Source: Candidatus Curtissbacteria bacterium RIFCSPLOWO2_12_FULL_41_16 (lineage in GTDB: Bacteria > Patescibacteriota > Microgenomatia > Curtissbacterales > GWA2-41-24). From it: a stretch of 64,000 bases of DNA. The DNA is taken from positions 14,065-78,064 of the forward strand of contig MFBZ01000022.1 of the NCBI GenBank assembly GCA_001776545.1, in the 5' to 3' direction. Shown here piece after piece: positions 4,178-64,000 of the stretch; position 1 is the stretch's first letter, and each line of letters starts with the position of its first letter. The notes under the pieces are model-generated. The model had not been told where the DNA came from and made no database searches. It saw only the letters and a program-made list of their open reading frames with translations. The position numbers and the translations under genes were made by a program.

Positions 4178-4232
4178 GAAACAATTGTAATTGTTAGATT
4201 GTTAGATTGCTATATTGTTAAATTGATTGAAA

Positions 4233-5980: not shown

Positions 5981-6792
5981 CTTTTTGGTAAATATTTATT
6001 GAGCGCGCCCGGACCTGAAATAACGTATTGTTGAATAATGCCAATTATAGTGAAAGTGTTCCAATAAAGCGAAAGGCCAACCGGAAACCCGTAAGAAAAA
6101 AAGGCAATCATTAAAGGCATAATGAGGGTCATTTGTGAGCTGACTTGGGCCATGGTATCTTCAATTTCACCTTTGCTATCGGTTTTTTTGACTGGCGTAA
6201 TTGACGGAGACGGTGGGAGGGCGGGGGTAAGCATTTTCGACTGAATCAATTGCAATAGACCTGTCAAAATGGGGATAGCAAGAATCAGAATACCCGCCTG
6301 TTGCCATTGGTTAGGTTTATCAGAAAGATTAAAACCTAAAAAGTAAGTATCCGGTACTTTGTCAAGGTGCAGGAACGAAAAATAAAGTTGGCTGTTGATT
6401 TTATTCAAGAAATCTCCGTTGACTTGAACAATTTTCAGAAGAACATTATAAAGGGCGATAAAAACCGGAATCTGTAAAATCATTGGAAGACAACCAGACA
6501 GAGGATTAACGCCGTGCTCCTTGTAAAGTTTACTGACTTCTTGTTGATGACGGATTTTGTCATGACCATGCTCGAGCTTAATGCGATCCAGGTGCGGCTT
6601 TAGGGCGGCCATTTTTTGGGTGCTTTTGAGCTGAACACCGGTTAGAGGCCAAAGTACTAAACGAATAGTGACGGTGAGAAGGATGATTGCAAAACCCAAG
6701 GCCCAGGGGATGAACAGTGTTTTGAGAGCCGCATAGTATGCGATAAGTAAGTTTAGAATCGGTGTAGTTAAAAAAACTTCAAAAGGATTCAT
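5962..6792 (-). CDS. yidC: Membrane protein insertase YidC
   Basis: 276 aa short-form YidC/Oxa1, multi-TM with the conserved C-terminal core. It sits in the conserved rpmH-rnpA-yidD-yidC-jag block. Confidence 0.85.
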   Translation of the reverse strand: MNPFEVFLTTPILNLLIAYYAALKTLFIPWALGFAIILLTVTIRLVLWPLTGVQLKSTQKMAALKPHLDRIKLEHGHDKIRHQQEVSKLYKEHGVNPLSGCLPMILQIPVFIALYNVLLKIVQVNGDFLNKINSQLYFSFLHLDKVPDTYFLGFNLSDKPNQWQQAGILILAIPILTGLLQLIQSKMLTPALPPSPSITPVKKTDSKGEIEDTMAQVSSQMTLIMPLMIAFFSYGFPVGLSLYWNTFTIIGIIQQYVISGPGALNKYLPKRWQKQS

Positions 6793-19666: not shown

Positions 19667-19866
19667 GATTGCAATTGCTAGATTGTTACATTGCTAAATT
19701 GTTGAATTGTTTAAAAATAAGCAGAGCTTTTCTTCGAATAACAATCTAACAATGAAACAATATAACAATATCACCCTACCATATGAAACAAGGTGCGGAA
19801 AGTAGATCAAACAGCCTCAAAATAGGCAGATTTTCACAGATGGAGAGTTAGTGTGATTTGCTGGAA

Positions 19867-24888: not shown

Positions 24889-26409
24889 TTAACCGCCTCC
24901 TTGTTCCAATGGTGGAGGTCTTGTTCCGACACCGCTTTTGAGAGATCTATTTAAGAATGGGACACGCTCTCCATATTTCGCAACCACTCCTTGAGCCATG
25001 CCCCAACTGGCGGCTTGACCGACTGCTCTGATGGGTGCGCCCAGAGGTCTACCAATGACGGCTGCCCCCGCACCGAGGGCGGCAGCTCCGGCACCACCGA
25101 ATTGTGGGCCTTTGGCGCCGATGGCGTTTTTGACAAGATTGGCCGCTTCGGGTGTCATGAAGAGAAATCCGAGAGCTATTATTTTACCAATTGCGCCAGG
25201 ATTAAGTCCACCGACAAGCAATGGGAACTTGAGAGCTTCGGAGGCGACTCCTTGAAGCTCGCCTGCTCCGGTTCCTCCAAATGCCGAAATTCCACCGATT
25301 GCCCCGGCAAATATAATCATTAAGGAAACCGTGGGGAAAACGGCGATATTGGCGGCCATTTGTTTAAACCATTCTTTGGCGCCGGTGTTGCCAGGAAGTG
25401 CCTGGATTAAAAAGAAAAAAGGTGCGACCATTGTCAAAATAATAATCATGACATAGGCCATCAGCAGCATTAAGAAAACCCTAAACATAATAAAAAGAGC
25501 GGCGATGCCGACGATTAAACCGGCTATTCCCCCTACGCCCCATTTAATTAAACCAAGTACAGCGCCGCCAGAGATGACGCTGTCCAATAGGCCCTTGATT
25601 GCTTCAGCTGTTGTAGTGAAAACATCTTTCCAGCCACCGACGATTACACCGAAGATACTTTTGTCAAAAATTACAGATGAAGCTTTAGGGGCAGCAATAA
25701 CACCTGCTTCTGCTAATAATTGAATTATGATGTTTATTACAAGGAACATGAGATCGATCATGAGACCGGCGATGGCATAACTGAAAGTAACTAAGATTAG
25801 AGCCACGACAATTCTGGGAATTGAGTCCTGAACGGTGGCTACGGCTTGCGGTGAAATATGGGCGCGGAACATGATCATGAAGCCGATGATCACAAAGACA
25901 ATAACAAAACCTACGTAGGAGGCATTTCTGAAGACTCTCCAGAGGTTAATTACTGGACTTAAAGCTTTGTATCCTTCTCCTTGGGCATAAACAGGTTGTA
26001 CTGGATTAAACTTTTGGAATTCTTGGGCGAAATATTGGACTCCTGAAGCGGGCGGGTTTCCATATAAACTTGCTACTAAGTTCGATGTTGCAGCTAAGGC
26101 TCCTCTACCTGCGGTGAGTTCATTTGTTTCTGGATGAAGGAGCGAGAATCCTAGGATTTGAGTATTTAAACTGTCAACCGTTCCGGCAATTTGGTTAAAG
26201 TTAAAAATTTTATCATCGAAGATATTTTTATCAATCGCACAGCGGTTAAATTGGTTAATAAGTTCTTGATCTGTTGCGTTTGGGTTGTAAGTGCATTGGG
26301 CGTGGACGGGAGAGATGGTAGCGAGTAGCATGTAGCTGGTAACTAGTAGAAAGGTAACTAGTAACTTGCAACTAGTAACTAGTGACCAGATTTTGGCAGC
26401 TAATTTCAT
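24889..26409 (-). CDS. VirB6/TrbL-like polytopic membrane protein
   Basis: 506 aa with a signal/TM N-terminus, a periplasmic segment, 6 or more TM helices and a Gly-rich C-terminal tail, the organisation typical of VirB6/TrbL. It lies in the same locus as virB4-like. Confidence 0.55.
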   Translation of the reverse strand: MKLAAKIWSLVTSCKLLVTFLLVTSYMLLATISPVHAQCTYNPNATDQELINQFNRCAIDKNIFDDKIFNFNQIAGTVDSLNTQILGFSLLHPETNELTAGRGALAATSNLVASLYGNPPASGVQYFAQEFQKFNPVQPVYAQGEGYKALSPVINLWRVFRNASYVGFVIVFVIIGFMIMFRAHISPQAVATVQDSIPRIVVALILVTFSYAIAGLMIDLMFLVINIIIQLLAEAGVIAAPKASSVIFDKSIFGVIVGGWKDVFTTTAEAIKGLLDSVISGGAVLGLIKWGVGGIAGLIVGIAALFIMFRVFLMLLMAYVMIIILTMVAPFFFLIQALPGNTGAKEWFKQMAANIAVFPTVSLMIIFAGAIGGISAFGGTGAGELQGVASEALKFPLLVGGLNPGAIGKIIALGFLFMTPEAANLVKNAIGAKGPQFGGAGAAALGAGAAVIGRPLGAPIRAVGQAASWGMAQGVVAKYGERVPFLNRSLKSGVGTRPPPLEQGGG

Positions 26410-26510: not shown

Positions 26511-27893
26511 TTAGCCACAGGTTGCTTCCATACCGCATTCGGGGCATTTTCTGACTCCGCTGCCGTAGCGGATAATATAGGTGCATTTTTCTTTCTTGTC
26601 TGTTTCGGGATCTACTTTCCAGCCTGGGCACTGAAAATCGCTTGTATCTTCATCTTCGTCATCGGTAAATGGAGCAAAATCCAAGACTGACTTAGCACCT
26701 ATGGCTCTTGCAAGTTGTTTGAGGAGTGGTGGTTGACTGACATTGAATCCTTTCTGACCGCCCGGACAACCCCGAGCGACGGGGCGAACAGGCTGTCTAC
26801 CGAAATGATTGATAAGATTATTAGTATTTTGAGGTCCGACCTCTGAGAATTCAAACTCTCTTTTGGAGGTCGGACCTCTTAAAAAACAAGTGGCATACGT
26901 GGTCTTTTTTTCTTCTCGGAGCTGTTTTTCAGTTAAGTCCGCCACATTATAGATGGCATTTAAGGTCAGTTTTATTTTTTCGATATCAAGAGGGTTTTCG
27001 ATTAAAGTTCGGATATAGGCAAGGATAAAGGGCGTACAGGCTTCAATGATCTGCTGGTTCACCTGATATTTTTGGGCCGATTTGTCAAAGCCAAAAACAG
27101 CCAAAATTTCCTCAAGAGATTTTTGGGATCTAATGGGAGTTTTTAAGAAGAAGGCCGCATTTAATCCTTCGGATGGGTCTCTAAATTGGGGACTAACAGC
27201 CTGGGCGGCTTTCAGAAAACTTTCAAGTGAATGTGTTGAGTGATATCTCGTCATATTTATTTTGCCCGACTTTTTTTGATAAACATCAAAAAGGTTTTCC
27301 GTGTAGAGGCTACCTTCGGGACTTTGTGGTGAGATGACAATGATTTTGGCTTCTTCCACCTCCGAGGAGCCAGGGCTCACCTCGGAGGTGTTGGTAAAGA
27401 GTTCTTGAATCTTGGCAATGCCTTCGACTTCTGCGGTTTCTCTTTCAGTTTCTGTACTGCCATTTGTGGTCAAGAACCTTCTGCCTTTTTCATATTCTTC
27501 AACGATTGGCCCCGGGTAATCTGGACTATAGAGCCTGCCATCCGTAACAATGAAGTATTCGATGGTACTTTTTTCGACGCCGAATCTTTCTCCTAATGCT
27601 TTTTCTATTTGACGTTTGGTGCGGTTATTGGTTTGGATTAATAATTGGGCGTATTCTTCGGGTGGAATTTTGCCGTTTAGACTCTTAAGATCCAGATAAT
27701 CTTGAATATCGTGGCGGGGATTGTAGCCCATGATGCCCTTGAATTCTTTGGGTATTTCCCAGAAAACGGGTTCTGCTTTTATTAAGACACCCCTGGGGTG
27801 TAAGGCTACTCCCACCCCAGGAGTGGACGTGAAAGGCGAGTCCACCTTGGAGGTGTCATGAGTGTGAGGGATAATGATTGTTCTTTCGGGCAC
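26511..27893 (-). CDS. Hypothetical protein with a C-terminal Cys cluster
   Basis: 460 aa. The C-terminus contains CPGG...CPGW...CPECGMEATCG (putative zinc ribbon). No other assignable domain. Confidence 0.4.
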   Translation of the reverse strand: MPERTIIIPHTHDTSKVDSPFTSTPGVGVALHPRGVLIKAEPVFWEIPKEFKGIMGYNPRHDIQDYLDLKSLNGKIPPEEYAQLLIQTNNRTKRQIEKALGERFGVEKSTIEYFIVTDGRLYSPDYPGPIVEEYEKGRRFLTTNGSTETERETAEVEGIAKIQELFTNTSEVSPGSSEVEEAKIIVISPQSPEGSLYTENLFDVYQKKSGKINMTRYHSTHSLESFLKAAQAVSPQFRDPSEGLNAAFFLKTPIRSQKSLEEILAVFGFDKSAQKYQVNQQIIEACTPFILAYIRTLIENPLDIEKIKLTLNAIYNVADLTEKQLREEKKTTYATCFLRGPTSKREFEFSEVGPQNTNNLINHFGRQPVRPVARGCPGGQKGFNVSQPPLLKQLARAIGAKSVLDFAPFTDDEDEDTSDFQCPGWKVDPETDKKEKCTYIIRYGSGVRKCPECGMEATCG

Positions 27894-30029: not shown

Positions 30030-30140
30030 GTATAATTGCTACATTGCTACATTGCTACATTGTTTGGTTAAGTTTCTAAATTAAATAATGATGATGTTTT
30101 TCTAAAACAATTTAACAATGGAACAATTTAACAATTTCTA
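30030..30140. repeat. Intergenic 8-bp-period tandem repeat (ATTGCTAC)x3 plus a CAATTTAACAAT cluster
   Basis: attgctacattgctacattgctacattg, then acaatttaacaatggaacaatttaacaattt. It belongs to the (ATTGYTAN)n family seen at nine or more intergenic sites. Confidence 0.7.
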
Positions 30141-30142
30141 TC

Positions 30143-30487
30143 TTACTTTGGTATTTCGACTGTGGTGACATCGACGCCGGTGAGGCCAGCGATTAACTTA
30201 AGGATAAGCCAAGAGGCCACAACTAAAATGATGCCAATGACAGCCATGGTGAGGGTACTACGGGCCTGGCCGGCGGCTTTAGGATCGCCGCCTGAGGTGA
30301 CAAACTGGAAGCCGCCAACCAAAAGCATTACAAAAAAAGCAATACCGGCCGCCGGGGCCAGAAGCTTAATGATTCTTTGAAGAATATCCACGACATCCAA
30401 AAGCTTGGCTGGTGGTGGATCAGTTTGGGCATAGACAGGCGAAACAAAAGCTGTCAAAAGCCCAACCAAAGTTAAGAAAATCCGCAT
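30143..30487 (-). CDS. T4SS pilin-like small membrane protein (paralog 1)
   Basis: Start trimmed to MRIFLT (ATG at 30485-30487). Signal peptide, a hydrophobic helix, a TSGGDPKAAGQAR motif and a second hydrophobic helix, resembling TrbC/VirB2-like and CPR T4SS pilins. Confidence 0.55.
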   Translation of the reverse strand: MRIFLTLVGLLTAFVSPVYAQTDPPPAKLLDVVDILQRIIKLLAPAAGIAFFVMLLVGGFQFVTSGGDPKAAGQARSTLTMAVIGIILVVASWLILKLIAGLTGVDVTTVEIPK

Positions 30488-30497
30488 GAGTTTCTGG

Positions 30498-30887
30498 TTA
30501 TGGTTCGACAGTAGGAATCGTAAACGTACCGCTGATAATGGTGACTCCGAAGAAAGTTTCCACCAATTTAATAATGGCAAAAGCAACCAAGACAATCACC
30601 AGACCAATTAACGCAGCAGTAATCGTATTTCTGGCACCCGCAACCGCTTTTTCGTCTCCACCCGCCAGAATCCAGCGGATGCCTCCCACCAGAAGCATAA
30701 TGAAAGCGATAATGAAGGCGACTACAAGGATAAACTGGATAATTGCCCGGATGATCTTAATAATATCCGCGTTTTTGCTAAGTTGTTCCGGTACAAGATT
30801 ATTCTGGGCAGCGGCTATGGTTGGGAATACAAGAGAACCGGTAAGAATCGCAAGCGGCCCCAGCAATCTTTTGGCATATTTAAACAT
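30498..30887 (-). CDS. T4SS pilin-like small membrane protein (paralog 2)
   Basis: 129 aa with the AGGDEKAVAGAR motif between two hydrophobic helices. Confidence 0.55.
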   Translation of the reverse strand: MFKYAKRLLGPLAILTGSLVFPTIAAAQNNLVPEQLSKNADIIKIIRAIIQFILVVAFIIAFIMLLVGGIRWILAGGDEKAVAGARNTITAALIGLVIVLVAFAIIKLVETFFGVTIISGTFTIPTVEP

Positions 30888-30914
30888 CAGATTCTTTTCA
30901 CCTCCCTTTTAGAT

Positions 30915-31319
30915 TTATCTTTGTGGCAGATTGAATTGGCCAGAGATGATTTGAACATTGAAAAAGGTTTCTACTAATTTGATTATAGCAAAAGCGCCGA
31001 CAACCACAACCAGTCCGATTAAGCCCCAGTAGATTTGGCCCCAGGCGGAAGCGATGGCTTTTTCGTCGCCGCCGGCGAAGATGAATCGGAGACCGGCAAA
31101 AATCATCCAGATGACACCGATGATGAAGGCTGCAATTACTAACAGGAAAATACCGTTCCTGATGAGGCTGGCAACAAAGCCTGAGGGGTTGGTTCCGGCA
31201 GAGGGAATTGAGGACGGGGCCGAGATTTTGCCGAGATCTTGGGCGAGGGCGAGTGAGGGAAGAATAAATAAACTGAAAAAAATTGCGAGGATGGTGATTA
31301 ATTGCTTCATTTTATTCAA
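30915..31319 (-). CDS. T4SS pilin-like small membrane protein (paralog 3)
   Basis: 134 aa with an AGGDEKAIASAW motif and the same architecture. Confidence 0.55.
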   Translation of the reverse strand: MNKMKQLITILAIFFSLFILPSLALAQDLGKISAPSSIPSAGTNPSGFVASLIRNGIFLLVIAAFIIGVIWMIFAGLRFIFAGGDEKAIASAWGQIYWGLIGLVVVVGAFAIIKLVETFFNVQIISGQFNLPQR

Positions 31320-31356
31320 ATAACAATTTAGCCATTTAGCAATTTAACAATTTGTA

Positions 31357-31656
31357 CTATGTTATCGGTACACTTGACCTTAAGAAATATTGGACTACTT
31401 GCAAAATGACAAAAGCCAAAATGGTAACCGTCAAACCAATAATAGCATAGGTTAAGGTTGCTTGGGCCGCAGCCAGTTTTTTTTGGTCTCCTGAGGCAGT
31501 GACGATTTTAATGCCGGAAATAATAATAAAAATAATGGCGATGGCGCCGGCGATGCTGGTTAGGATGAGAATGATGTCGCTGGCGAGAGCGCCGAAAGTT
31601 TCAAAGCGGGCTGGAGGGAAGATAGTTTTGTCAATTGTAAAAGCTAATTGGTTCAT
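31357..31656 (-). CDS. T4SS pilin-like small membrane protein (paralog 4)
   Basis: 99 aa with an ASGDQKKLAAAQ motif and the same architecture. Confidence 0.5.
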   Translation of the reverse strand: MNQLAFTIDKTIFPPARFETFGALASDIILILTSIAGAIAIIFIIISGIKIVTASGDQKKLAAAQATLTYAIIGLTVTILAFVILQVVQYFLRSSVPIT

Positions 31657-31829
31657 GGTTTCTTCCTTCGACCGACTAACGACTAAAGCCGTTCAATAAT
31701 TTTTAATTTTCAATTCACATTCAATTCTTAATGACTTAATTTTGAAATTTAGAAAATGAAAATTCATTGAAAATTGCAAATTGAAAATTACTAAAAGCGC
31801 TAGTCTTTAGTTGGTAGTCGTTAAGCATT

Positions 31830-32204
31830 TTAAACTACCCCACTGTTTCCTAAAAATATCTTGTCAACAATCTGCAAAATGGCAAAGGCCAGGATAATGA
31901 TCACGAAGCCGATGACGGCAAAGGTCAGCCGGCCGCGGGCGGCTGCTGCGGCTTCGGGATTGCCGCCGGAAGTAATAAATTGAATGCCGGAGATGATAAT
32001 GACAATGACGGTGATAAAGCCGGCAATACCCAGAACTACAGGCAAGAATTCGCTAATAATTTTGCCTATCAGTCCTTGTGCAGAAAACTTTTTTTCAACA
32101 TCTGACTTGGGTAAAGTGATTTGGGCAATTATCGCCGTCAGGCCCGTCGGCGCAAGAAGTTTTCTTAATTGATTTTGCATAGTTTTATCCAAAGGTAATT
32201 CCAA
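31830..32204 (-). CDS. T4SS pilin-like small membrane protein (paralog 5)
   Basis: 124 aa with a TSGGNPEAAAAARGR motif and the same architecture. Confidence 0.5.
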   Translation of the reverse strand: MELPLDKTMQNQLRKLLAPTGLTAIIAQITLPKSDVEKKFSAQGLIGKIISEFLPVVLGIAGFITVIVIIISGIQFITSGGNPEAAAAARGRLTFAVIGFVIIILAFAILQIVDKIFLGNSGVV

Positions 32205-33219
32205 GTATATTAAGACCGATAAATTTGAGTATCAAAACCGAGAATATCAAAAACAGCAGTCCGGCGACTGCTCCCACAATTATGTCGCGGCCGCCTGCCA
32301 GTTTTTGCTGGTCGCCGGAAGAAGTCAAGACACGGACTGAGCCGATAACCATTAGAATTAAGGCAATACCGCCGGCAAGGCCAATGGCAATGCCCAAGAT
32401 TTTGCCGGCAAAGGCTGTGGGGTTGGTGGGGATGTCTCCAAGGGCAGTTTCACAGACTCCTCCCGGACAGGGATTTTGGCCGGAAGTTCCGGTACTGGTG
32501 CCCCCACCAGGAGTTTTCCCTTCTTTGACAGTGATGGCTGGTAATTGATAACAAAATTCTGTTGTTGGAGGTATGGTATTAGGAGCAAAATAAAGTTTTA
32601 GGATATGATTGCCCTTTTTTAGTTTTCCGATATTTGCTTGCCACCCTCCTGGGCCAACTGGAGCACCTGCTGTTAAACTTTTAAAATCTTTATCATCAAT
32701 TTTGACACCAAATGATGCAGGATTTGTTCTCAAGGGATCAGAACCTGTAACAGGTTCAAAATATGCCGTAATATCGGTATCTTCATAAAATTCAGCTGGG
32801 CTATAGGCGTCAAACTGAGGACAAGCCCCAGCTCCGGTAGTTGCCTGGACAGTAAAGGTTGAGGAACATTCAATACTGCCATCTGGGCGCTGGAAATCGA
32901 AGGTATAGACGGCATTCACATCGAATGGTCCAACTGACCTTGAGAAATTGCCGTTCGCGTCTGTGGTAATCGGATCACTTATAACGACAAAACCAGGTCT
33001 TCTGACCACAAGCGTGTAAGATTTGTTGGCGAGTGCTGGGTTATTCGAAGTAAACGAAACAGTTGTCTGCTGAGTTGTAGAAATAAAATTGGGAGAAGCA
33101 CCACAACTCCCTACCGCCCTCGCGGTATTATTTAAACCTATAATGCTCCAAAGAAAAATGAGTATTACGAATGAAATAATGAAAGAAATCTTCTTGAAAT
33201 TAAAAATGTTCATCGTCAA
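32185..33219 (-). CDS. Pilin-like protein with an N-terminal beta-sandwich (Ig/adhesin-like) domain
   Basis: 344 aa with a signal peptide and a ~250-aa beta-rich domain. The C-terminus carries the pilin module (TSSGDQQKLAGGRD) flanked by hydrophobic helices. Confidence 0.5.
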   Translation of the reverse strand: MTMNIFNFKKISFIISFVILIFLWSIIGLNNTARAVGSCGASPNFISTTQQTTVSFTSNNPALANKSYTLVVRRPGFVVISDPITTDANGNFSRSVGPFDVNAVYTFDFQRPDGSIECSSTFTVQATTGAGACPQFDAYSPAEFYEDTDITAYFEPVTGSDPLRTNPASFGVKIDDKDFKSLTAGAPVGPGGWQANIGKLKKGNHILKLYFAPNTIPPTTEFCYQLPAITVKEGKTPGGGTSTGTSGQNPCPGGVCETALGDIPTNPTAFAGKILGIAIGLAGGIALILMVIGSVRVLTSSGDQQKLAGGRDIIVGAVAGLLFLIFSVLILKFIGLNILGITFG

Positions 33220-33451
33220 TTTCAGTGTAGCATTAGATAGATAAATTGTTAAATTGTTACATTGCTAAATTGCCGAGTTGGCTATTTGAAGATTTCGGTT
33301 TCGAGAGATTTGGCAAAGGCTTACTTTTTCTCTTGGATATTGTTTTTTCAATTTTTCGTAGTTATTGCTCCCATATATGAATGTGTATGAATGTGTGAAT
33401 CATATCAAGAATCTAGTTTAACACAAAATTAGGCCATGGTATTAAATTGTG

Positions 33452-41259: not shown

Positions 41260-41417
41260 TCGTCGAAGCAAGGCTTTGCTTCGACGACCTTAGACCTTCG
41301 GTCTTTGGTCTAGCGCAAGCCTGCTTCTCCTCTCAAAAATTCTGACGAATTTTTGGAAGACTAGAAGGAATTTTAGCAGAAATTAGCTTCAAAATCAAGC
41401 GGCGATGTAATATAAAT

Positions 41418-47553: not shown

Positions 47554-47887
47554 GTTAAAGCATTAAATATATCGAACTATATCAAATCTTAATTTGAGAC
47601 AAGCCCTTTTTATAATCGCTTGCGATTACATCGCGCGCTCTTGTAACGCAAGAGCGATATAGTGTCTCATTTGTCTCATTTAGCCTCGAAGATGAGACAC
47701 TAAACCTCTCCGATTTGGTACAATACCCATCGGGTGACTATGGGAGCGTTGGGTCCCAGACCCACATGCTCCGCCAAGCGAAGGAAGGTTCGTTCATAGT
47801 GCAAACGAAGTGCACTATGCTTCGCAAAGCGAACATCCTGCCGCCTCCGCTGAAGTGCCGTTTGCGACGGTTTGATTCTGCTACAAT

Positions 47888-48556: not shown

Positions 48557-48778
48557 ATCGATGAACCGCACGTGGGAGCTTTACCCGCCCGAATTTTTGA
48601 GGCTGCCAGCTCGGGTGCTATCCCTCCGGGTAGGTGAATTGAAAACCCGCAAATAGTATAATCTATACTCACTCGAACGGTGACTGGTTGCAGAGCGATT
48701 TGCTCTAATTGCTCTCGGAAAAAAGTTCCAACATAGTCAACTAGGCACCGCCGAAGCCCTATAACATTTGACTTCCTA

Positions 48779-49606: not shown

Positions 49607-49879
49607 TTCCCTAAAATTGTATAATCTATACTCGAACGGTGACTGGTTGAAGGGCAATTTGTTCTAATTGCTTTTGGAAAAAAGTTCCAACATAGTCAAA
49701 CAGACACCGCTTGTTAAAACTAAACTTTGCTTATCGCCGAGCCTGACTCGGCTTATCGCAAGTTTGTTTTTCCTCTTCAAAATCGCAAGCGATTTTGAGA
49801 TTTTTACTCTTCTCTTTTAAAATTCATTCCGGCAATTTTGATAGTTGTTTTGTGATAAACTTGTAGTTGGATAGTTTTT

Positions 49880-50455: not shown

Positions 50456-50617
50456 AAATTCAATTGTTAAATTGTTTCATTGTTGAATTGTTAGACTGTT
50501 TTGAGTATCTAGTTCCCTTGTAGTAAAATTCCACTGGGTGCTTGTAGTTTCCGCCAGAGGCGGATCAGCCCATGGGTTCTGAGATCCTCAGGATCGAATG
50601 ACCTTTGGCTGACATTT

Positions 50618-52797: not shown

Positions 52798-53179
52798 TAC
52801 TGTATATACAATATATGTATATATTACTATAATGTTCAGTATTTTGTCAATGATCCGCAACCAGCAGTAAGTAAGAAGAAATGAGACACCCTTTTTTACA
52901 GTGTCACATTTGTTCCATTTAGCCTCGCACGTGAGACACCATGTTCTGAAGATTTGATACAATACGATGGTTAGGAGTAGTGGGGACTATAGGAGCGCTG
53001 GGCTCCAGACCCACGTGCTCCGCTCGTCGAAACAAAGCTTTGCTTGTCGCCGAGTCTGACTCGGCTTAGCGCAAGCTTGTTTCTCCTCTTCAAAATTGCT
53101 TCGCAATTTTGAGATTTTTCTTGTTTCGTAGAATTTTCCTAAATCTGGTAAAATCCCATTGTGCCGATTAAGCGGATTT

Positions 53180-53954: not shown

Positions 53955-54518
53955 TTGCCTGTCATGGCGATTAAGAGGATTTTTAGTGCTGGAGGAATTG
54001 TTATCAGACCCTTAGGCTACGATCCCGTTTCGAAATTTGACGAAACGGGATCGGGAAAAGAGGCTGAAAAGTGGGAGGTTTTGGTGACTCAGCATTCCAA
54101 ACATAAAGGCTGGGATTTTCCCAAAGGCCATCGGGAAATTTATGAATCGGAGGAGCAAACGGCTCTGCGGGAGGTTGAGGAAGAAGCTGGTGTTAAGGCG
54201 GAAATTATCGAGAGGGTTGGCCAAACGCAGTATTTCTACTGGGAAACGGAAGAGCCCGTCTTCGCCCCTTCGACCCTTCGGTTATACTCAGGGCCATTGG
54301 CTTCGCTCAGGGCTACGGTGGGGAAAGAAAAGGTATTAAAAACTGTTGCTTATTATTTGATGAAGTACGTTGGAGAAGGAGAAGCTACAACTGCTTTTGA
54401 GGTTAGTGCTAAAGTTTGGCTACCAATTGATAAGGTTGAGGAGAAATTGACATTTAAGGATACCAAGGAATTGTGGGAGAAGGCGAAAATCAAGATAGAA
54501 GCGATCAGTGACAAGTGA
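53955..54518 (+). CDS. NUDIX hydrolase
   Basis: Nudix box GHREIYESEEQTALREVEEEAGV. The coding sequence contains an embedded copy of a short GC-rich repeat (~54262-54312). Confidence 0.7.
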   Translation: MPVMAIKRIFSAGGIVIRPLGYDPVSKFDETGSGKEAEKWEVLVTQHSKHKGWDFPKGHREIYESEEQTALREVEEEAGVKAEIIERVGQTQYFYWETEEPVFAPSTLRLYSGPLASLRATVGKEKVLKTVAYYLMKYVGEGEATTAFEVSAKVWLPIDKVEEKLTFKDTKELWEKAKIKIEAISDK

Positions 54519-54579: not shown

Positions 54580-54669
54580 GGAGAGGTCGCATAGTGGACT
54601 AGTGCGCAGACCTGGAAAGTCTGTATACTCGCAAGGGTATCGAGGGTTCGAATCCCTCCCTCTCCGCCA
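54580..54669 (+). tRNA. tRNA-Ser (anticodon GGA), CCA encoded
   Basis: Acceptor GGAGAGG/CCTCTCC, anticodon stem CAGAC/GTCTG with loop CTGGAAA, 18-nt variable arm and T-arm GAGGG-TTCGAAT-CCCTC, then GCCA. Confidence 0.75.
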
Positions 54670-54761
54670 TCCTTCGCCAAGTCGCCGACGCTCCATAGCT
54701 TTGGCGACGGAGCGGCTATAGGGGTGGCTATGCTGGTGGATTGGAAAGAAGTAAGAAATTC

Positions 54762-54834
54762 GCGCCCATAGTTCAATGGACAGAACGTTAGGTTCCGGAC
54801 CTAGAGGCTAGAGGTTCGAGTCCTCTTGGGCGCA
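54762..54834 (+). tRNA. tRNA-Arg (anticodon CCG)
   Basis: Acceptor GCGCCCA/TGGGCGC, D-arm GTTC/GAAC, anticodon stem TTAGG/CCTAG with loop TTCCGGA and T-arm AGAGG-TTCGAGT-CCTCT. Confidence 0.7.
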
Positions 54835-54839
54835 CACTG

Positions 54840-55619
54840 ATGGAAAGGCAAGAGCCTGAGGTACCAATGATTGTCAAAAAGCGCTGGTTTTTAGATTTTA
54901 AGCCAGAAGAAATTGAGATAATCCGGCAAAATCGAGAAACTGTGGTGGTTGTTGATCTTTGGGCGGCAACAACCAACATTGTTTTGATGCTTGCCAAAAA
55001 ACCTCAAAGATTGATTTTAGTCAGCGACGATAAATTTCCGGAAGCCGAAAAAGTTTATCCCCAGTCAGTTCTAATTGGTCAGAGCAAGGTCATCCCCGAG
55101 GAAAAGTTTGCTTCCTCATCTAATAAATCTTCGGATGTGGATAAGGTGGATATTGCGGGAAAAGTAGTCTTATATGTGACGTTTAACGGGACACGAGTTT
55201 TGGAGGCATTTTCCAGTAATGAGAAGGGGTTAATCTTTGCGGGGTCGATGACAAATCTTGAGGCGCTTGTCTTACGACTGAGGGGTTTGAGCCCCAGTAA
55301 GGTAAATGTTGTGGCGTCTGGAAATTTGACCGGTGAAATGGGGGGTGTGGTTTTTATCGAAGATTTTCTTGGAGCGGAGATTATTGAAAAGAAGCTGAAA
55401 GGTCAGGAGCTTGATTTTCAGGCGGCTGCCGAAATGATGAAGCAGGAGATGCTAAAGTATTACCCAGCTGATTTAGAAGAAGCAGAAGACAAAGTTTGGC
55501 CCTACATTTTTGGGCAACAGACCAACATTTTGCCGACAGCTTTTATCAATAACGAGGGTTTTGTGGAGGCGGTTCGACCCTTCGGTTATACTCAGGGCCA
55601 TTGGCTTCGTTCAGGATAA
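54840..55619 (+). CDS. 2-phosphosulfolactate phosphatase (ComB) family protein
   Basis: 259 aa whose size and pattern (VVVVDLWAATTNIV..., FAGS, VVASGN) resemble ComB-family phosphatases. The start is probably the internal MIVKK at 54867. The C-terminal 16 aa are encoded by a copy of the short GC-rich repeat. Confidence 0.5.
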   Translation: MERQEPEVPMIVKKRWFLDFKPEEIEIIRQNRETVVVVDLWAATTNIVLMLAKKPQRLILVSDDKFPEAEKVYPQSVLIGQSKVIPEEKFASSSNKSSDVDKVDIAGKVVLYVTFNGTRVLEAFSSNEKGLIFAGSMTNLEALVLRLRGLSPSKVNVVASGNLTGEMGGVVFIEDFLGAEIIEKKLKGQELDFQAAAEMMKQEMLKYYPADLEEAEDKVWPYIFGQQTNILPTAFINNEGFVEAVRPFGYTQGHWLRSG

Positions 55620-55625
55620 ATTGTT

Positions 55626-57506
55626 ATGGATCAGAAGGACGAGGTTAAAAGTAAGGTTGATTTGGTTGAAGTTATTGCTTCATATATTCCCCTAAAAAAA
55701 ATGGGCAGGAATTTTGCCGGACTTTGCCCGTTTCATTCCGAGAAGACCCCCTCGTTTATGGTTTCTGCCGAAAGGCAGGCTTTTAAATGTTTTGGGTGTA
55801 ACGAGTCAGGTGACGTCTATACTTTTTTAGAAAAAATGGAAGGATGGGATTTTCGGGAAGCCCTGGAGGAGATGGCCAAGAAGGCAGGAGTTGTGCTTGC
55901 CGACTTTAAACCGAGCGGAGTCCAAAAAAATAAGGAAAAGTTAATTGAGATAAATAAGAAAGCCCTGCAATTTTACAAATATTTATTAAATAAACATCCG
56001 ATAGGCGAGACGGCAAGAAAATACCTTATTAGCCGTGGAGTGACCCAAGAGTTTTGGGAGAAATTTGATTTGGGGTATGCTCCGGCTGGCTGGGAAAATC
56101 TTTCCAAATTTTTAAAAAAAAGAGGGTACGACCTTGCGGATATGGCAACAGCAGGGCTTATGATTGCCCGCCTGATGGTGCCTCGAGTGCAGGCGAGCGG
56201 CGGGCAGGGAAGAGACACAAAAGGACCCGGCTTTTCGGAAGGCGGGTATTATGACAGGTTTCGTAATCGGATTATTTTTCCCCTCAAAGACGGGCGGGGT
56301 ACGGTCCTGGGATTTTCGGGCAGGACTATCGATGACGCACAGAAAGAGGCCCCACTTCGCTCAAAGAGTTTCGAGGGGCAAGCAAAGTACATTAATTCTC
56401 CAGAGACGTCTATTTATAACAAGGGTTCGTTGCTTTTTGGTTTGGACGTGGCAAGAGGCGCAATTCGAGACAAGAAAGAAACTGTTTTGGTTGAAGGCGA
56501 ATTTGACGTGATTTCGGCACATAAGGCAGGCGTTTTTAATGTAGTGGCATCTAAAGGGACGGCCCTGACAGAAAGGCAAGTTGTAATCCTTTCGCGGCTT
56601 GCAGAGAAGGTGGTACTTTGTTTTGATACAGATTTGGCGGGAGACGCAGCAGCCAGGCGAGGCATTGAGCTATTGGATCTTGCGGGTCTTGATATTTGTG
56701 TGGTTAGACTTGGAAAGCATAAAGATCCTGACGATTTTGCCCAAAAGGATCCTGCCGGTTTTAAAAAGGCAATAAGTAATGCTTTGAATGTTTATGATTA
56801 TTTTCTTGAATCGGCAACGGCAAGATATGATCCGAAAACGGCAGACGGCAAAAAGAAAATAGGTCAGGAAATTCTACCTGTTCTTGCAAGAATTTCAGAT
56901 GATTTGGTAAGGGCTCATTATACGGATAAGCTCGCGAGGGTTTTGGATTTGGAAGTGACTCTGGTCGCGGCAGCAGTTGACAAAAAAATGGGCAGTCTTT
57001 TTACAACTTTGCAAACAGGGGGAGTTGGAGCGTCCGTCAAAAGCAAGTTAAGCCTTGAGGAATATTTTTTGGCCCTTTTTATTTCACAAGACGAAATAGT
57101 GACTAGTTTTGTGGTTGATGTTAAACCTGGCGATTTTGAAAATGAAAAGGCGGCAAGTTTTTGGAAATGGCTTCGTGATATAATCAGGGCTTCCCAAGCG
57201 CGGACAGGCCATCGTTTGGGCGAAAAGCCCAAAAGTTTAAAAAGGTTACTAGAAAAGCTACCTGGCGATTTGGGAAGTTTTGTTGACCATCTTTATCTTG
57301 CAAATATAAGTCCTGCTTTTGGCGAAAAGGAATTTTGGGCTCAGGAAGTGGCTAAAATTGCTCAAAGAATTAAGAAAGAATCTTTAAAGCGGCAACTTTT
57401 TGAAGTGTCACGGCGTTTAAAAACGGCCCAAGCTGAAAAGAACATGCGCAAGATGACGATTTTGACAAAAAGATTTGATCAGATAGCAAAATATCTTAAA
57501 TCTTAA
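55626..57506 (+). CDS. dnaG: DNA primase DnaG
   Basis: 626 aa with an N-terminal zinc finger ([11 protein letters not shown]...CFGC), a TOPRIM domain (EGEFDVIS) and a C-terminal helical domain. rpoD follows. Confidence 0.85.
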
Positions 57507-59409: not shown

Positions 59410-61197
59410 ATGTACATTCTTGGGATTTCCTGTTTTTATCATGAGTCGGCAGCTTGCCTTTTAAAAGATGGAAAAGTGGTAGCGGCCAGCGCTGAGGAGC
59501 GGTTTAGTCGCAAAAAACATGACAGTGAATTTCCGAAATTGGCGGTGGGGTTTTGTCTTAAAAAAGCGGGAATTACCGCCGCTGATCTTGATTTTGTGGT
59601 TTTTTACGAAAAGCCTTTTTGGAAATTTTCCAGAATTTTACTTTCTACTTTGGTCTCGTGGCCTTTGGCTTTCCGGCTTTTCGCTAAAGCAATGATTACT
59701 TGGATTTCCGGCAAGCTTTGGGTGAGATCGATTATTGGTGAGGAGTTGAGGGTTGACGTAAAAAAGATTTTGTTTGTGCCTCATCATGTTTCGCACGCGG
59801 CGGCGAGTTTTTATCCTTCAGGTTTTCGTGAAGCGGCGATTTTAACTTGCGATGCGGTAGGGGAATGGACTACAACAACGCTGGGGTTTGGTGAAGGAAC
59901 AAATATAAAGATTGAAAAAGAAATTAAATTTCCACACAGTTTGGGACTTTTGTATTCGGTCTTTACGGCATTTTTGGGATTTGAGGTAAACGACGGCGAG
60001 TACAAAGTTATGGGTATGGCGCCGTATGGCAAACCAAAGTATCTGGATCGGGTCAAGAAACTGGTCAAGGTTTATCCGGACGGCTCGTTTTCTTTGAAAA
60101 TGGAGTATTTTAAGTTTCATAAGTCGGTAGAGTACGCTTACGGCGAAAAGTTTGTCGAGCTTTTCGGCAATCCGAGGACCCGCGATTTGCACTTTTTTAC
60201 AAAGGGCTCCGGTTATCCTTCTTACTTTGGAGAAAGACCTGAGAACTATAAAGAGCTTTGCGGGTTGAATCAGAAGTATGCCGATATTGCTGCTTCCATC
60301 CAGGCGTTTACAGAGGAGACAATTTTGAAGTTGGCTGATTATGTACATCAGCAGACCAAGATGGAAAATCTGTGCATCGGCGGCGGCGTTGGATTAAATA
60401 GCGTGGCCAACGGTTTGCTCTTGAGGCGCGGGCCTTTTAAGCGGATTTTTGTGCAGCCGGCGGCGGGGGATGACGGCGGAAGTATTGGAGCGGCTTTGTA
60501 TGTTTATCATCAGATATTGGGTAAAAGACGAATCTTTGTTCAGGATAATTGTTATTTCGGGGCTGAATTTGGTGAGGCTGAGATTGAAAGTTTTCTTAAA
60601 AAGAAGCGAGTTAAGTACAGAAAAATTGGGACTGAGGAAAAGTTAGTTGACTATCTATCTGGCGAGATTGTTTCCGGGAAAGTTGTCGGTTTTTTCCACG
60701 GGAGAGCGGAGTGGGGTCCGCGGGCACTTGGAGCAAGATCAATAATTGCTGATCCGAGGCGGGAGGAAATGAAGGAGATAGTCAATACAAAAATAAAATT
60801 CAGGGAACCTTACCGGCCTTTTGCGCCGGTAGTTTTGGCTGAATATGCAGGCGATTATTTTGAGGTCGATGGATTGGCACACGAGGATTTAACTAAATTT
60901 ATGCTGGGTGTGTTTCCGGTGAAGAAGTCAGCAAAGAAAGTGATTCCGGCAGTGACTCATGTGGACGGGAGCGGCCGGCTACAGATAATAAGACGTGATC
61001 AAAACGCCCGCTACTACGATTTGATTAAGCGCTTCGGGGATTTGACGGGAGTCTACGTTTTGATGAATACCTCTTTTAATTTAAAAGGTGAACCGATTGT
61101 CAATTCGCCCGAGGATGCTTTGAATACTTTTTCAAAATCGGGCCTCGACATTTTGGCGCTGGAGAGATATATTGTTTTGAAAGAAGATGTTAAGTAA
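59410..61197 (+). CDS. Carbamoyltransferase (NodU/CmcH/TobZ family)
   Basis: 595 aa with an N-terminal MYILGISCFYHESAACLLKDGKVVAASAEERFSRKKHD segment and a C-terminal YrdC-like/Kae1-like arrangement, typical of the family. Confidence 0.75.
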   Translation: MYILGISCFYHESAACLLKDGKVVAASAEERFSRKKHDSEFPKLAVGFCLKKAGITAADLDFVVFYEKPFWKFSRILLSTLVSWPLAFRLFAKAMITWISGKLWVRSIIGEELRVDVKKILFVPHHVSHAAASFYPSGFREAAILTCDAVGEWTTTTLGFGEGTNIKIEKEIKFPHSLGLLYSVFTAFLGFEVNDGEYKVMGMAPYGKPKYLDRVKKLVKVYPDGSFSLKMEYFKFHKSVEYAYGEKFVELFGNPRTRDLHFFTKGSGYPSYFGERPENYKELCGLNQKYADIAASIQAFTEETILKLADYVHQQTKMENLCIGGGVGLNSVANGLLLRRGPFKRIFVQPAAGDDGGSIGAALYVYHQILGKRRIFVQDNCYFGAEFGEAEIESFLKKKRVKYRKIGTEEKLVDYLSGEIVSGKVVGFFHGRAEWGPRALGARSIIADPRREEMKEIVNTKIKFREPYRPFAPVVLAEYAGDYFEVDGLAHEDLTKFMLGVFPVKKSAKKVIPAVTHVDGSGRLQIIRRDQNARYYDLIKRFGDLTGVYVLMNTSFNLKGEPIVNSPEDALNTFSKSGLDILALERYIVLKEDVK

Positions 61198-61489
61198 TTG
61201 TTATATTGCTATATTGTTAAATTGTTAAATTGTTAAAGAACAATAAGCGAAGCTTTTCTTTGAATAAAAAAATTCAACAATCTAACAATTGAAATTATGC
61301 GGTTTTTTAAATCATTTTTTTCAAGAGGTTCAGAAGCAAGAGACTTAATTGAGTTTTTGTGGAAGGCAAAACTTTGGTTTTTGATTCCTTTTGTGGCGGT
61401 GCTTTTATTATTTGGGTTCCTTCTGATTTTTGCCCAGGCTACAGGTGTCGCCCCTTTTATCTACACCCTTTTTTAGTCAAAGAGGAAAT

Positions 61490-61880: not shown

Positions 61881-64000
61881 GTGAAAAAGTTTCCCTCCGA
61901 TTCAAAATTTCTGCTTTTAATTGTTGCAATTTTTACTTTTCTTTCGCTTCTTTTGTTCTGGCCGGTTTTTTTAGGGAAAGTTAATTTAAACGGTAATCTT
62001 TTGGTTTCTTTTTACGCGCCGTTTGGCCAGAATTTGCCTTTTAAAAATACCGGCTGGGATCAGCTTAGAATATACTTTCCCTTTTACAGAGTTGCCCTTG
62101 ATGCAATAAAAAATTTTAGTTTGCCGCTTTGGAATCCTTACGCGTTTTCCGGACATCCGCACATGGCGGATTTCCAGACTGCGGTATTTTACCCACTTTC
62201 CATCTTTGGGTTAGTATTGCCCCAGATTGAATTTTGGCACCTGTTGCGTATTACACCGACAATTCTAGCTTCATTTTTTACCTTTCTGTTTCTTAAGAAT
62301 TTGAGATTGTCGATGCTCGCCGCCATTTTTGGATCGCTGACTTTCGGCTTTAGCCCTTTTATTTTGACTTGGGGGGAGGAAGTGGTGATGAGCCCGCATT
62401 CAATTGTTTGGCTGCCGTTAATTCTATGGGCGATTGATCGATATTTAGGTTTTCTGGCTCACCACCGGGGAGTCCCCTTCGGCTTCGCTCAGGGCAAGCA
62501 AGCCCACCACGGGGGTATTGCTGGGCGGTTTTTCTTGGTAATCATTGCCCTTTCCACGGCCTCCTCCTTTTTTGGCGGCTATATGCAGACTACAATTTAT
62601 ATGTTTATTTTTATTTTTGCCTATCTTATCCTTAGAATTTGGCGTAATTCCGTACGTGTCAACTCAAGACACCCTTGGGGTGAATTAGCTTTACACCTGC
62701 GGATTTTGGGAAGTTTTGGTGTTGGAGTTGGCTTGGCGGCCGTTCAACTTTTGCCTTCTGCCGAACTTTATTTTAGCTCTGCCAGATCGCAAATTGTTCT
62801 CCGTCAGACCTTGTTCGATTTTTTACTGCCCATAGAATCGCTTTTAACCTACCTGGCCCCCGATTTTTTTGGGCATCCGGCCACGGGAAACTTCTTTAGA
62901 CCAGGCGTTGCCCAGTACTATGAAGGAATCTTGTTTGTAGGAGTGGCGGCCCTGATTTTTGCAGCCTATGCAATCCTTAATCAGAAGCAGGATAAGTTGG
63001 TCGGCTTTTTGGCAATTTTTGGATTGGTTGCTGCCTCGACAACATTTGATTTGCCAACCGCAAGACTTTTTTTATCTTTGCCGGTTCCATTTCTTTCGAC
63101 ATCGATTGCCAGCAGAGTTCTTTTTATTCCGGCTTTTTGTCTTTCAATTTTGGCAGCCATTGGCCTTGAACGGTGGCTGGCAAGTAAAGACAGAATGGTA
63201 CTGAAAATTATTTTTAGCTTTGGCGTAGTTTACGCGGTAATTATTTTGATTCTTTTGGTGATTAAGTTTTTTCACCTTAATTACTTTGAACATGCCAAAT
63301 TTTTCTCCCAACAGAACGTGCTGGTTAGCTTGAGAAATTTAGTGGTGCCGATTTTCGTCTTCGGGCTAACGGCTACTTTAATCTTTTATGCTAGTTTTAA
63401 GGGGAAATTTAAACAACAGGCGGCTTTTTTGATTACTATTTTGGCCTTTTTGCATATTTTTTACTTTAGTCAAAAATATTTGTCGTTTAGTGAGCGAAAA
63501 TATGTTTTCCCCGAAAACCATGCTCTGAGTTTTATGGCTGAAAATCAAGGAATTTTCCGCTCCTGGGGAATCGGGGATGCTTTTTTGGAAAATAATTTTG
63601 CCAGCCAATACGGTATCTTTTGGCCCGAAGGTTACGATTCTTTGAACAATAGATCTTATGGGGAATTTACGTACGCGATGCAGGGAAATAAACTTTCTGA
63701 TTTCGTTTTTAGGGCCGATGCTGGATTTGGACGAGGGAAGACTGAGGAGCTACTTGGGAATCCAGACAGGCGAAGGCTTATCGATATGGTGGGAATTAAA
63801 TATGTAGTAGCCTTGAGTGATGAAGGGGAAGTGATGAGTCTTTATAACTTCAAAAAGGTTTTTTCAGATGGCAAATATGCGGTATTTGAAAATTTACAAG
63901 TTATGCCCAGAGTTTTTTTGGCTTCAAATTATGAAGGACCCCCGCCAGTTGAGGATGAAGGATTAAGGATTAAGGATGAAGGAAAAATGAGAAGAAGGTT
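61881..64000 (+). CDS. YfhO-family membrane protein (putative glycosyltransferase), partial at the 3' end
   Basis: GTG start at 61881, directly after an in-frame TAA. The translation (VKKFPSDSKFLLLIVAIFTFLSLLLFWPVFLGKVNLNGNLLVSFYAPFGQNLPFKNTGWDQLRIYFPFYRVALDAIKNFSLPLWNPYAFSGHPHMADFQ...) is typical of a YfhO N-terminus. The frame is open to the window end. It contains an in-frame 45-nt insert-like segment at about 62448-62505. Confidence 0.6.
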   Translation, partial: MKKFPSDSKFLLLIVAIFTFLSLLLFWPVFLGKVNLNGNLLVSFYAPFGQNLPFKNTGWDQLRIYFPFYRVALDAIKNFSLPLWNPYAFSGHPHMADFQTAVFYPLSIFGLVLPQIEFWHLLRITPTILASFFTFLFLKNLRLSMLAAIFGSLTFGFSPFILTWGEEVVMSPHSIVWLPLILWAIDRYLGFLAHHRGVPFGFAQGKQAHHGGIAGRFFLVIIALSTASSFFGGYMQTTIYMFIFIFAYLILRIWRNSVRVNSRHPWGELALHLRILGSFGVGVGLAAVQLLPSAELYFSSARSQIVLRQTLFDFLLPIESLLTYLAPDFFGHPATGNFFRPGVAQYYEGILFVGVAALIFAAYAILNQKQDKLVGFLAIFGLVAASTTFDLPTARLFLSLPVPFLSTSIASRVLFIPAFCLSILAAIGLERWLASKDRMVLKIIFSFGVVYAVIILILLVIKFFHLNYFEHAKFFSQQNVLVSLRNLVVPIFVFGLTATLIFYASFKGKFKQQAAFLITILAFLHIFYFSQKYLSFSERKYVFPENHALSFMAENQGIFRSWGIGDAFLENNFASQYGIFWPEGYDSLNNRSYGEFTYAMQGNKLSDFVFRADAGFGRGKTEELLGNPDRRRLIDMVGIKYVVALSDEGEVMSLYNFKKVFSDGKYAVFENLQVMPRVFLASNYEGPPPVEDEGLRIKDEGKMRRR

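Follow-up and report, generated by a model that had tools for sequence, protein, structure and literature searches.

Rickettsia, together with a few bacteria rich in repetitive extragenic palindromes (REPs), provides most of the known cases of short repeats that lie in frame within essential genes. Ogata and colleagues are said to have described, in 2000, Rickettsia palindromic elements (RPEs), in-frame insertions in protein genes that are unrelated and often essential; RPE-1, the classic form, measures 100-150 nt and is clearly palindromic, and we know of no transposase for RPEs. The GC clusters and byp elements of yeast mitochondria, short and GC-rich, look like mobile insertions in a genome that is otherwise richer in AT; they can sit in protein genes, and to our knowledge they too have no transposase. 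Elements of the REP/RAYT (REP-associated tyrosine transposase) and IS200/IS605 kind insert without duplications beside a short target word. In the account of intragenic REPs given by Di Nocera et al. (2013, PMC3733652), such REPs lie inside open reading frames (ORFs), in frame and often in replication or repair genes; RPE-4 and RPE-6 of Rickettsia are equated there with CGTC REPs, and the REP tag is an unpaired GTAG (GTGG) or CGTC at one end. Here we describe a short GC-rich repeat in a 64,000-nt stretch (42.5% GC; hereafter the window, the sole portion of the host genome examined) of Candidatus Curtissbacteria bacterium RIFCSPLOWO2_12_FULL_41_16, where it is embedded in three unrelated genes, encoding a NUDIX hydrolase, a ComB-like protein and a YfhO-like membrane protein. 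On balance we favour the view that it is a REP- or RPE-like miniature, non-autonomous repeat, copied by insertion or by short-homology conversion and translated through with its host proteins.

The repeat was defined by a 40-mer, GACCCTTCGGTTATACTCAGGGCCATTGGCTTCGYTCAGG, that occurs exactly twice in the window, at 54272-54311 and 55576-55615, both on the plus strand, and never in 100 dinucleotide shuffles of the window. Extension by the repeat finder gave a 43-nt repeat, with one copy in the NUDIX gene (54269-54311) and another closing the ComB-like gene at its 3' end (55573-55615), where it encodes the C-terminal tail; the two copies share 42 of 43 nt (98%). The core CCCTTCGG-N5-CTCAGGGC is matched without mismatch at 54274, 55578 and 62475 (plus strand). 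With up to three mismatches it was observed 4 times against 0.31 expected, a count reached in no shuffle, and the looser CCTTCG-N3-9-CTCAGG 3 times against 0.02. The third site, at 62475-62495 in the YfhO-like gene, belongs to a shorter variant spanning 62474-62495. A loose scan of the window (at most two mismatches, spacer 4-9) found no further copies beyond chance. We call family A all units built on CCCTTCGR-(3-5 nt)-CTCAGGG, after which CAAGC or CAGGC often stands.

All three host genes lie on the plus strand: the NUDIX gene at 53964-54518 (Pfam PF00293, E=3.8e-13), the ComB-like gene, of the 2-phosphosulpholactate phosphatase family, at 54840-55619 (PF04029, E=5.5e-20), and the YfhO-like gene from 61881 to 64000 and on past the window end (PF09586, on the identical gene of L007; L-numbers designate comparison loci or contigs, and P-numbers NUDIX orthologue proteins). 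The reading frame is open through every intragenic copy and yields PSTLRLYSGPLASLRA in the NUDIX protein, RPFGYTQGHWLRSG followed by the stop codon in the ComB-like protein, and VPFGFAQGKQ in the YfhO-like protein (insert-spanning peptides PSTLRLYSGPLASLR, RPFGYTQGHWLRSG and VPFGFAQGKQAHHGG). An earlier note, made from the letters of this DNA, had described the block in the first two genes, a shorter variant in the third and these in-frame readings. The block, the variant, the frames and the peptides are real; the coordinates given there were 2-4 nt off, the variant having been placed at 62470-62491, and the ComB-like 3' end comprises 14 codons plus the stop, not 16. The NUDIX and ComB-like proteins are 100% identical to proteins of Candidatus Curtissbacteria RIFCSPHIGHO2_01_FULL_41 (Microgenomates, within the Candidate Phyla Radiation, CPR). 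Two further assemblies of the organism, L007 (JGI) and L008 (NCBI GCA_001776495.1), contain the same region with all three copies, which are therefore not an assembly artefact.

Comparison with syntenic relatives (~60% protein identity; L001-L003 obtained with a DnaG query, L004-L006 and L137-L141 by exact-protein look-ups) shows that the segments are lineage-specific in-frame insertions at all three loci, as had been proposed: the sites are empty in many NUDIX and several YfhO relatives, and the ComB homologues are shorter. The earlier note had taken conservation of the peptides in orthologues as the sign of native sequence; no such conservation was seen, the NUDIX and YfhO segments being absent from relatives. 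The insert lengths at the three loci (75, 66 and 27 nt) are all multiples of three, and their GC content is 52-67% against 42-46% for the host genes. Since the lengths are multiples of three and the frames are open, the evidence points to inserts that are read through in translation. The sense strand of the elements is stop-free in every frame, and this is why copies survive in genes. Moreover, the inserts occupy harmless positions: a β-hairpin tip, a membrane-protein loop and a C-terminal tail.

The NUDIX gene gives the fullest comparison. Its 75-nt insertion (EEPVFAPSTLRLYSGPLASLRATVG, 54249-54323) has 63% GC against 46% for the gene, and where the window protein has 25 additional codons, L002, L003, L004 and L139 read YFYYEE directly followed by GERVLKTV. 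At this site (site 2) ~80 of 120 orthologues are empty and ~38 carry related inserts (EPHSAPQGGASRGK, PSSAKASEGK, EEPTFAPSTLRASVGK), tandem-doubled in some (P0037, P0072, P0103). In an AlphaFold2 model of the window protein (mean pLDDT 79; core above 90 in most 10-residue blocks), residues 100-116, encoded by the insertion, have a pLDDT below 50 and lie between β-strands 77-95 and 121-138, which places the insert at a predicted disordered β-hairpin tip. Together with the ComB copy, which forms the tail of its protein, this agrees with the expectation that the element is tolerated in loops and C-termini. Another loop, site 1, is also disordered in the model (pLDDT below 50 at residues 24-34) and is hypervariable. 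The window has there the insert PLGYDPVSKF (CCCTTAGGCTACGATCCC..., 54009-54038), window-specific in a four-way alignment and probably a decayed element copy; other orthologues have PFDYTQGLR, PIRQAQG or RRAQGK, the first of these in L139, where it is encoded by TCCTTCGACCCTTCGATTACACTCAGGG. Among close relatives the two sites are filled independently of each other: P0018 is filled at site 1 and empty at site 2, and P0019 is empty at site 1 and filled at site 2.

The element is not as simple as the first description had it. When alleles are compared, the NUDIX and ComB copies prove two-layered, with an older outer unit (CCTTCGA-CTTCG-CTCAGG) common to relatives and an inner 27 nt that alone is strain-specific. 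In the NUDIX gene the composite spans 54265-54313: the outer unit CCCCTTCGA...CTTCGCTCAGGGC surrounds the inner unit CCCTTCGGTTATACTCAGGGCCATTGG (54274-54300), which is nested in the middle of the outer unit, exactly behind its TCGA. The left arms are in tandem with an 8-nt period, and Tandem Repeats Finder (TRF) reports period 8, CTTCGACC x2.6, at 54260-54280. L141, P0019 and P0029 have the outer unit without the inner one. At the DNA level the occupied alleles are a 48-nt single unit (...CCCCTTCGATAGGACTCAGGGC...) in L141, a 72-nt two-layer form in L137 and the 75 nt of the window, which equal the outer unit (CCCCTTCGA then CTTCGCTCAGGGC) with the additional 27 nt after TCGA. The ComB-like gene has the identical 27 nt at 55578-55604 after the TCGA of the same outer unit, followed at 55605-55619 by the outer unit's right arm (CTTCGTTCAGGA) and the TAA stop. 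The ComB homologues, 239-257 aa and mostly 241-242 aa long against 259 aa in the window, end with no element or with a short form: in L004, L005 and L006 the gene ends ...GTCCTTCGACTTCGCTCAGGATGA, encoding VLRLRSG and a stop, which is the short outer unit. In three coding examples the addition of a single arm would shift the frame (8+19, 10+14 and 8+7 nt); therefore each nested layer in a gene came as a single event.

At its end (...TTCAGGATAA) the ComB copy places an AGGA 9 nt upstream of the ATG of dnaG (55626-57506, plus strand). This AGGA likely doubles as the dnaG Shine-Dalgarno site, and by its position the copy probably also serves translational coupling to dnaG. The ComB-like gene itself is present in the window, L004, L005 and L006 and missing between the NUDIX gene and dnaG in L002, L003 and L137. 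From the comB 3' end through the dnaG start, L004 (~6530-6610) and L006 (~1920-2000) are identical over the ~80 nt compared; their ComB proteins, with 58% and 49% identity to that of the window, are clearly unlike each other. This identity, which includes the short element form, points to a recent recombination tract across comB/dnaG.

The YfhO-like gene contains a 66-nt in-frame insertion (LAHHRGVPFGFAQGKQAHHGGI, 62454-62519; 67% GC against 42% for the gene) that is missing at this site in four orthologues (L002, L004, L005, L137). Within it, a family-A unit, CCCTTCGGCTTCGCTCAGGGC, with the tail AAGCAAGC (62475-62503; exact relatives CCCTTCGACTTCGCTCAGGGCAAGC in L163 and L170) stands between CACCACCGGGG (62460-62470) and CACCACGGGGG (62505-62515), 45 nt apart. 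These are the repeats that had been seen as bracketing the variant. They exist at that spacing, but they are arms of a palindrome of another family, which we call family B, and not target duplications. In L137 a homologous composite (~80% identity; CACCTCCGAGGAG-cccccttcgac...tttgctcagggcaagcgagc-tCACCTCGGAGGTG, with arms CACCTCCGAGG and CACCTCGGAGG) is found after LIFRIW, ~50 residues downstream of the window's site, and a solo pair of the same arms is found at a third position of the gene. Because the arms move with the composite to another site, they belong to the element. A target-site duplication was accordingly rejected for the repeats flanking both the YfhO and the NUDIX insertions, the empty and filled NUDIX sites likewise showing no consistent duplication. 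The window's YfhO copy is thus a family-A unit in the loop of a family-B element (CACCNCNGNGGTG arms). In L004 an element unit occupies a second YfhO site.

The family-B motif CACC-N5-GGTG has four sites in the window against ~0.5 expected. In-frame family-B sites were noted at 27357-27390, 27788-27855 and 62670-62696 of the window and at 18431-18470 of L137. Comparison with nine homologues marks the first as an insert of 7 residues (TSEVSPGSSEVE), in frame, within an unrelated protein of 460 aa; family B also occurs in the N-terminal variable part of the ORF at 26511-27893 (minus strand) and as HPWGELALH in YfhO. Scans of viral contigs for family-B arm pairs and for the window's 24-nt subfamily unit gave no matches.

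Further along the cluster, DnaG contains a 14-residue loop encoded by a decayed element copy (...CCCCACTTCGCTCA...GGGGCAAGC, 56343-56384), which is empty in L002 and L140 and holds clear units in L001, L004 and L137. Two more GC-rich (62-63%), window-specific in-frame inserts lie in dnaG at 56196-56234 (13 residues) and 57195-57224 (10 residues); neither has a recognisable family-A or family-B core. Between dnaG and the YfhO-like gene, on the plus strand, lie rpoD and then a carbamoyltransferase gene. Between the NUDIX and ComB-like genes lie tRNA-Ser (54580-54669) and tRNA-Arg (54762-54835), both on the plus strand. In L004 and L006 family-A copies immediately follow the 3' ends of tRNA genes and are oriented with transcription. 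In the window a GC-rich hairpin (54670-54728, z -1.9) that starts CCTTCGCCAAG follows tRNA-Ser(GGA) immediately; it may be a disrupted family-A copy, because in L006 the same tRNA-Ser is followed by the clean unit CCCTTCGGCAAGCTCAGGAC.

Outside Curtissbacteria, matches on other contigs place the core in a family that spans phyla, CCCTTCGAC-N-GCTCAGGG. The window's exact 20-mer was found on six metagenome contigs. An unrelated ORF of L009 contains the whole 45-nt composite, read there in the frame that it has in the NUDIX gene. In L011, L012 and L013 the 20-mer is intergenic, and in the latter two the unit again follows the TCGA of an outer unit, which has the stem TTGACACT/AGTGTCAA in L012 and continues ...CAAG in L013. 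In L010 (3957-3976) and L014 (1779-1798) it stands ~70 nt upstream of GAGGGAAAGTCCGA, a box reminiscent of the conserved RNase P RNA core, with inverted element halves between the two; Rfam made no RNase P call at these boxes. A scan of viral contigs for CCTTCGRCAAGCTCAGGR, a pattern with a calculated chance expectation of ~1 per 1.7e10 positions, gave at least 120 matches, on contigs of 32-73% GC among the matches listed. The variable-centre pattern CCCTTCGR-N3-7-CTCAGGGCAAGC gave 51 more stretches, with centres such as CAAG, CAGG, CTCCG, CAAAG and CTTCG, and these include exact forms found in Curtissbacteria genes. The earlier note had likened the element to repeats of reduced genomes; the GC range of these contigs, together with the presence of the core in cultured Proteobacteria, shows that the family is not peculiar to them. 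Many canonical units form a doublet with a copy in inverted orientation (ccgttcgtggtgagcttgtcgaaccat...cccttcgacaagctcagggcgaacgg), and this doublet is intergenic on plasmids of Moraxella osloensis, Sphingobium, Comamonas, Methylobacter and Polaromonas.

Nesting was not confined to the window. In 131 canonical single units, in-register Watson-Crick pairing at the first two flanking positions was 0.79 and 0.47, against 0.08-0.38 for positive register shifts and 0.73 at the first position for a shift of -1; pairing thus extends the fixed CCT/AGG by ~2 bp and is weak beyond. Among 231 units from unrelated contigs, an additional left arm tends to go with an additional right arm (odds ratio 47, Fisher p=4e-10), and L179 has three concentric arm layers. 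Self-nesting in concentric arms is a trait of the family.

All together, near-identical units are dispersed at non-homologous sites within and between genomes: the unrelated ORF of L009, intergenic DNA, NUDIX site 1 (a related unit in L139), DnaG and a second YfhO site (L004, L137). The distribution suggests a mobile element, as the earlier note had supposed, although no transposase was found. A new copy would be inserted either in the middle of a resident copy or elsewhere. A trans-acting enzyme specific for hairpins or single-stranded DNA, of the REP/RAYT or IS200/IS605 kind, could act in one route, and templated copying between copies, through 8-13 nt of arm homology, in another; the two routes are not mutually exclusive. 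The elements would then pass through transcription and translation together with the host gene, and the ComB copy would in addition provide a stop codon and, for dnaG, the AGGA that serves as ribosome-binding site.

With REPs and their doublets (REPINs) the family shares short (20-40 nt), GC-rich, dispersed repeats that occur as single, dimeric or grouped units, some of which overlap stop codons; in both, inverted-doublet relatives are mostly extragenic and a minority lie in frame, including in replication genes, adding 10-30 residues. Several observations weigh against our reading. The window holds few copies, three in all and confined to 8.3 kb; these are sense and intragenic with no inverted partner, unlike the high-copy extragenic doublets of REPs. 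Their stem is only the 4-bp CCCT/AGGG, and they fold no better than shuffles (z -0.65 to +1.5, both strands). No GTAG/CGTC tag, terminal inverted repeat or target-site duplication was found at the window copies, which also sets them apart from miniature inverted-repeat transposable elements; the tag is likewise lacking in the Curtissbacteria copies at large. No RAYT relative was found in a tblastn search with E. coli RayT over the window and 1.3 Mb of loci (best E 0.61; one query, 64 kb of host genome). The core is conserved across phyla, unlike classical REPs, which are normally lineage-specific, and its concentric nested arms are absent from the REP descriptions in PMC3733652, at least in the parts of that paper that treat them. 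The nearest relatives are ~60-70% identical, and the compared loci include no filled/empty allele pair with identical flanks; the insertion boundaries are therefore fixed only to within a few nt. Finally, the 42/43 identity of copies 1.3 kb apart could come from gene conversion and not from transposition.

The likeness to RPEs is closer in setting than in form. Both show in-frame insertion into ORFs relative to orthologues, a small-genome host and tolerated surface positions; in contrast to RPEs, the present units are 21-27 nt long (45-75 nt as composites) and weakly palindromic, features that argue against membership of a described RPE family; they are probably unlike RPEs in sequence, and the family is not confined to one genus. 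The yeast mitochondrial clusters differ in their organelle host and unrelated sequences, and byp elements are bypassed in translation. In Rfam the nearest entry is RF02901 (AaHKsRNA41, Aggregatibacter sRNA 41), whose arms CUGAGCUUGcCGAAG / UUCGgCAAGcUCAG are the canonical family-A inverted doublet. Canonical doublets (L063, L057) nevertheless score 22-31 bits against its gathering score of 97, the window copies do not match it, and the entry stands for one transcript of one species, not for a dispersed repeat. Nothing in Rfam matched the element, either at E<10 over 53.5-64 kb or at gathering over the whole window, and a protein-database search with three concatenated frame translations of the element gave no candidates. 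A structured-RNA or terminator reading of the window copies was dropped, as no copy folds with excess stability.

The alternative that survives best is ectopic gene conversion or template switching without transposition, which we consider possible though clearly less probable than the reading above. The inner 27 nt would have been copied between the NUDIX and ComB-like genes, 1.3 kb apart, through arm homology of 8 nt on the left and 13 nt on the right, and the family would spread and stay homogeneous mainly by such short-homology copying. The outer unit is indeed ancestral at both loci, the identity of the two copies ends where the arms end, both right arms of the DnaG copies vary jointly (GGG,GGG in L004 against GGA,GGA in L137), and the comB/dnaG tract shared by L004 and L006 is of the kind expected. 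Conversion does not explain primary insertions where no copy was resident (window YfhO site A, the L004 YfhO site, the L009 ORF, intergenic L011), nor the same composite in other genomes. It could nevertheless be the origin of the nested copies, in which case it is compatible with the miniature-repeat explanation.

It is unlikely that the repeat is instead a selected functional motif (an RNA element, a terminator-like or translation-coupling signal, or a DNA uptake sequence) that is kept where it is tolerated. The conservation of the core over contigs of such different GC content (among the matches listed), the copies 3' of tRNA genes in L004 and L006, the overlap of the ComB copy with a stop codon and the AGGA before dnaG, and the cataloguing of the canonical doublet as an sRNA all speak for such a role, as does the orientation of the seven independent intragenic Curtissbacteria sites, all of them sense. 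However, these seven sites all lie in one co-oriented gene cluster, and in the wider family sense and antisense copies stand at 64:45, where 3:2 is expected from a single antisense stop codon (the ORF-context tally of the viral matches, unreliable on high-GC contigs, was used for this ratio only); the orientation of copies is therefore uninformative. The window copies have neither an Rfam match nor excess folding, and a need for a signal inside the NUDIX β-hairpin would go unexplained. DNA uptake sequences occur about once per kb in both orientations, are lineage-specific and arise by point mutation, not insertion; the window instead has three insertions per 64 kb, on one strand, with a core that spans contigs of widely different composition. 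That the segments are native, vertically inherited low-complexity loops, alike by chance or by codon or composition bias and growing by replication slippage alone, is very improbable: the hypervariable NUDIX loops with their tandem doublings and the TRF periodicity would suit it, but it is already contradicted by a 43-nt near-identity of unrelated genes that shuffles do not produce, by identical units dispersed over unrelated genes, intergenic DNA and other genomes, by nested alleles whose one-arm steps would break the frame, and by the co-occurrence of additional left and right arms.

The window contains further repeats. Arrays with an 8-nt period (AATTGTTA / ATTGCTAC, 3.5-5 copies) are intergenic and occur in both orientations, at 4190-4225, 19673-19771, 30035-30137, 31324-31353, 33242-33272, 50462-50493 and 61196-61237; they could be a regulatory or protein-binding repeat. 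A ~130-nt module is 84-86% identical between 47658-47785 and 52897-53035, with repeats also noted at 49707-49798, 53020-53111 and 41311-41355. It consists of a promoter-like TGnTACAAT box and a stem-loop, GGAGCGYTGGG...CCCACRTGCTCC, with a 7-nt loop, followed in one copy by GCCA; the stem-loop resembles a tRNA acceptor/T-arm minihelix (z -1.7 and -2.0), neither ARAGORN nor Rfam makes a call on the module, and in L004 a family-A unit follows its 3' end. Some repeats lie beside toxin-antitoxin genes and just 3' of the tmRNA gene. An 81-nt direct repeat (48671-48751 and 49630-49710) is 89% identical, with a distance of 959 nt between its copies. Long stretches at 12600-13610, 24984-25279 and 30233-32445, in which GC peaks at 62-67% and short repeats such as GCCAATGCCAGC recur internally, are probably Gly/Ala/Pro-rich coding repeats.

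A search of open-access papers and preprints by sequence, by peptide and for CPR bacteria found no description of the element or of such inserts in CPR genomes. As a more speculative extension, to which we give rather little weight, family A (CCCTTCGRC-N-GCTCAGGG) might be an insertion element of an undescribed class, ultra-small (~20-25 nt) and self-nesting, with a core that CPR bacteria and Proteobacteria have kept alike; some widespread enzyme, so far not connected with the family, would move it. Such an element would insert at the centre of hairpin-like targets (TCGA^) and, being open in all sense frames, would generate variation in protein loops in CPR bacteria.

In-frame short repeats are now seen in a CPR bacterium, in its primase, a NUDIX hydrolase, a ComB-like phosphatase and a YfhO-type membrane protein. 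The unit is unusually small, and its core is common to repeats of Proteobacteria and to many metagenomic contigs. If the family is mobile, part of the variation in loops and length among CPR orthologues would be explained, and gene callers and alignments would gain a named source of spurious "hypothetical proteins" and indels. The family would also offer a tractable case for how a 20-nt sequence spreads without an obvious transposase, and its concentric nesting provides a concrete hypothesis for the target site, TCGA^.

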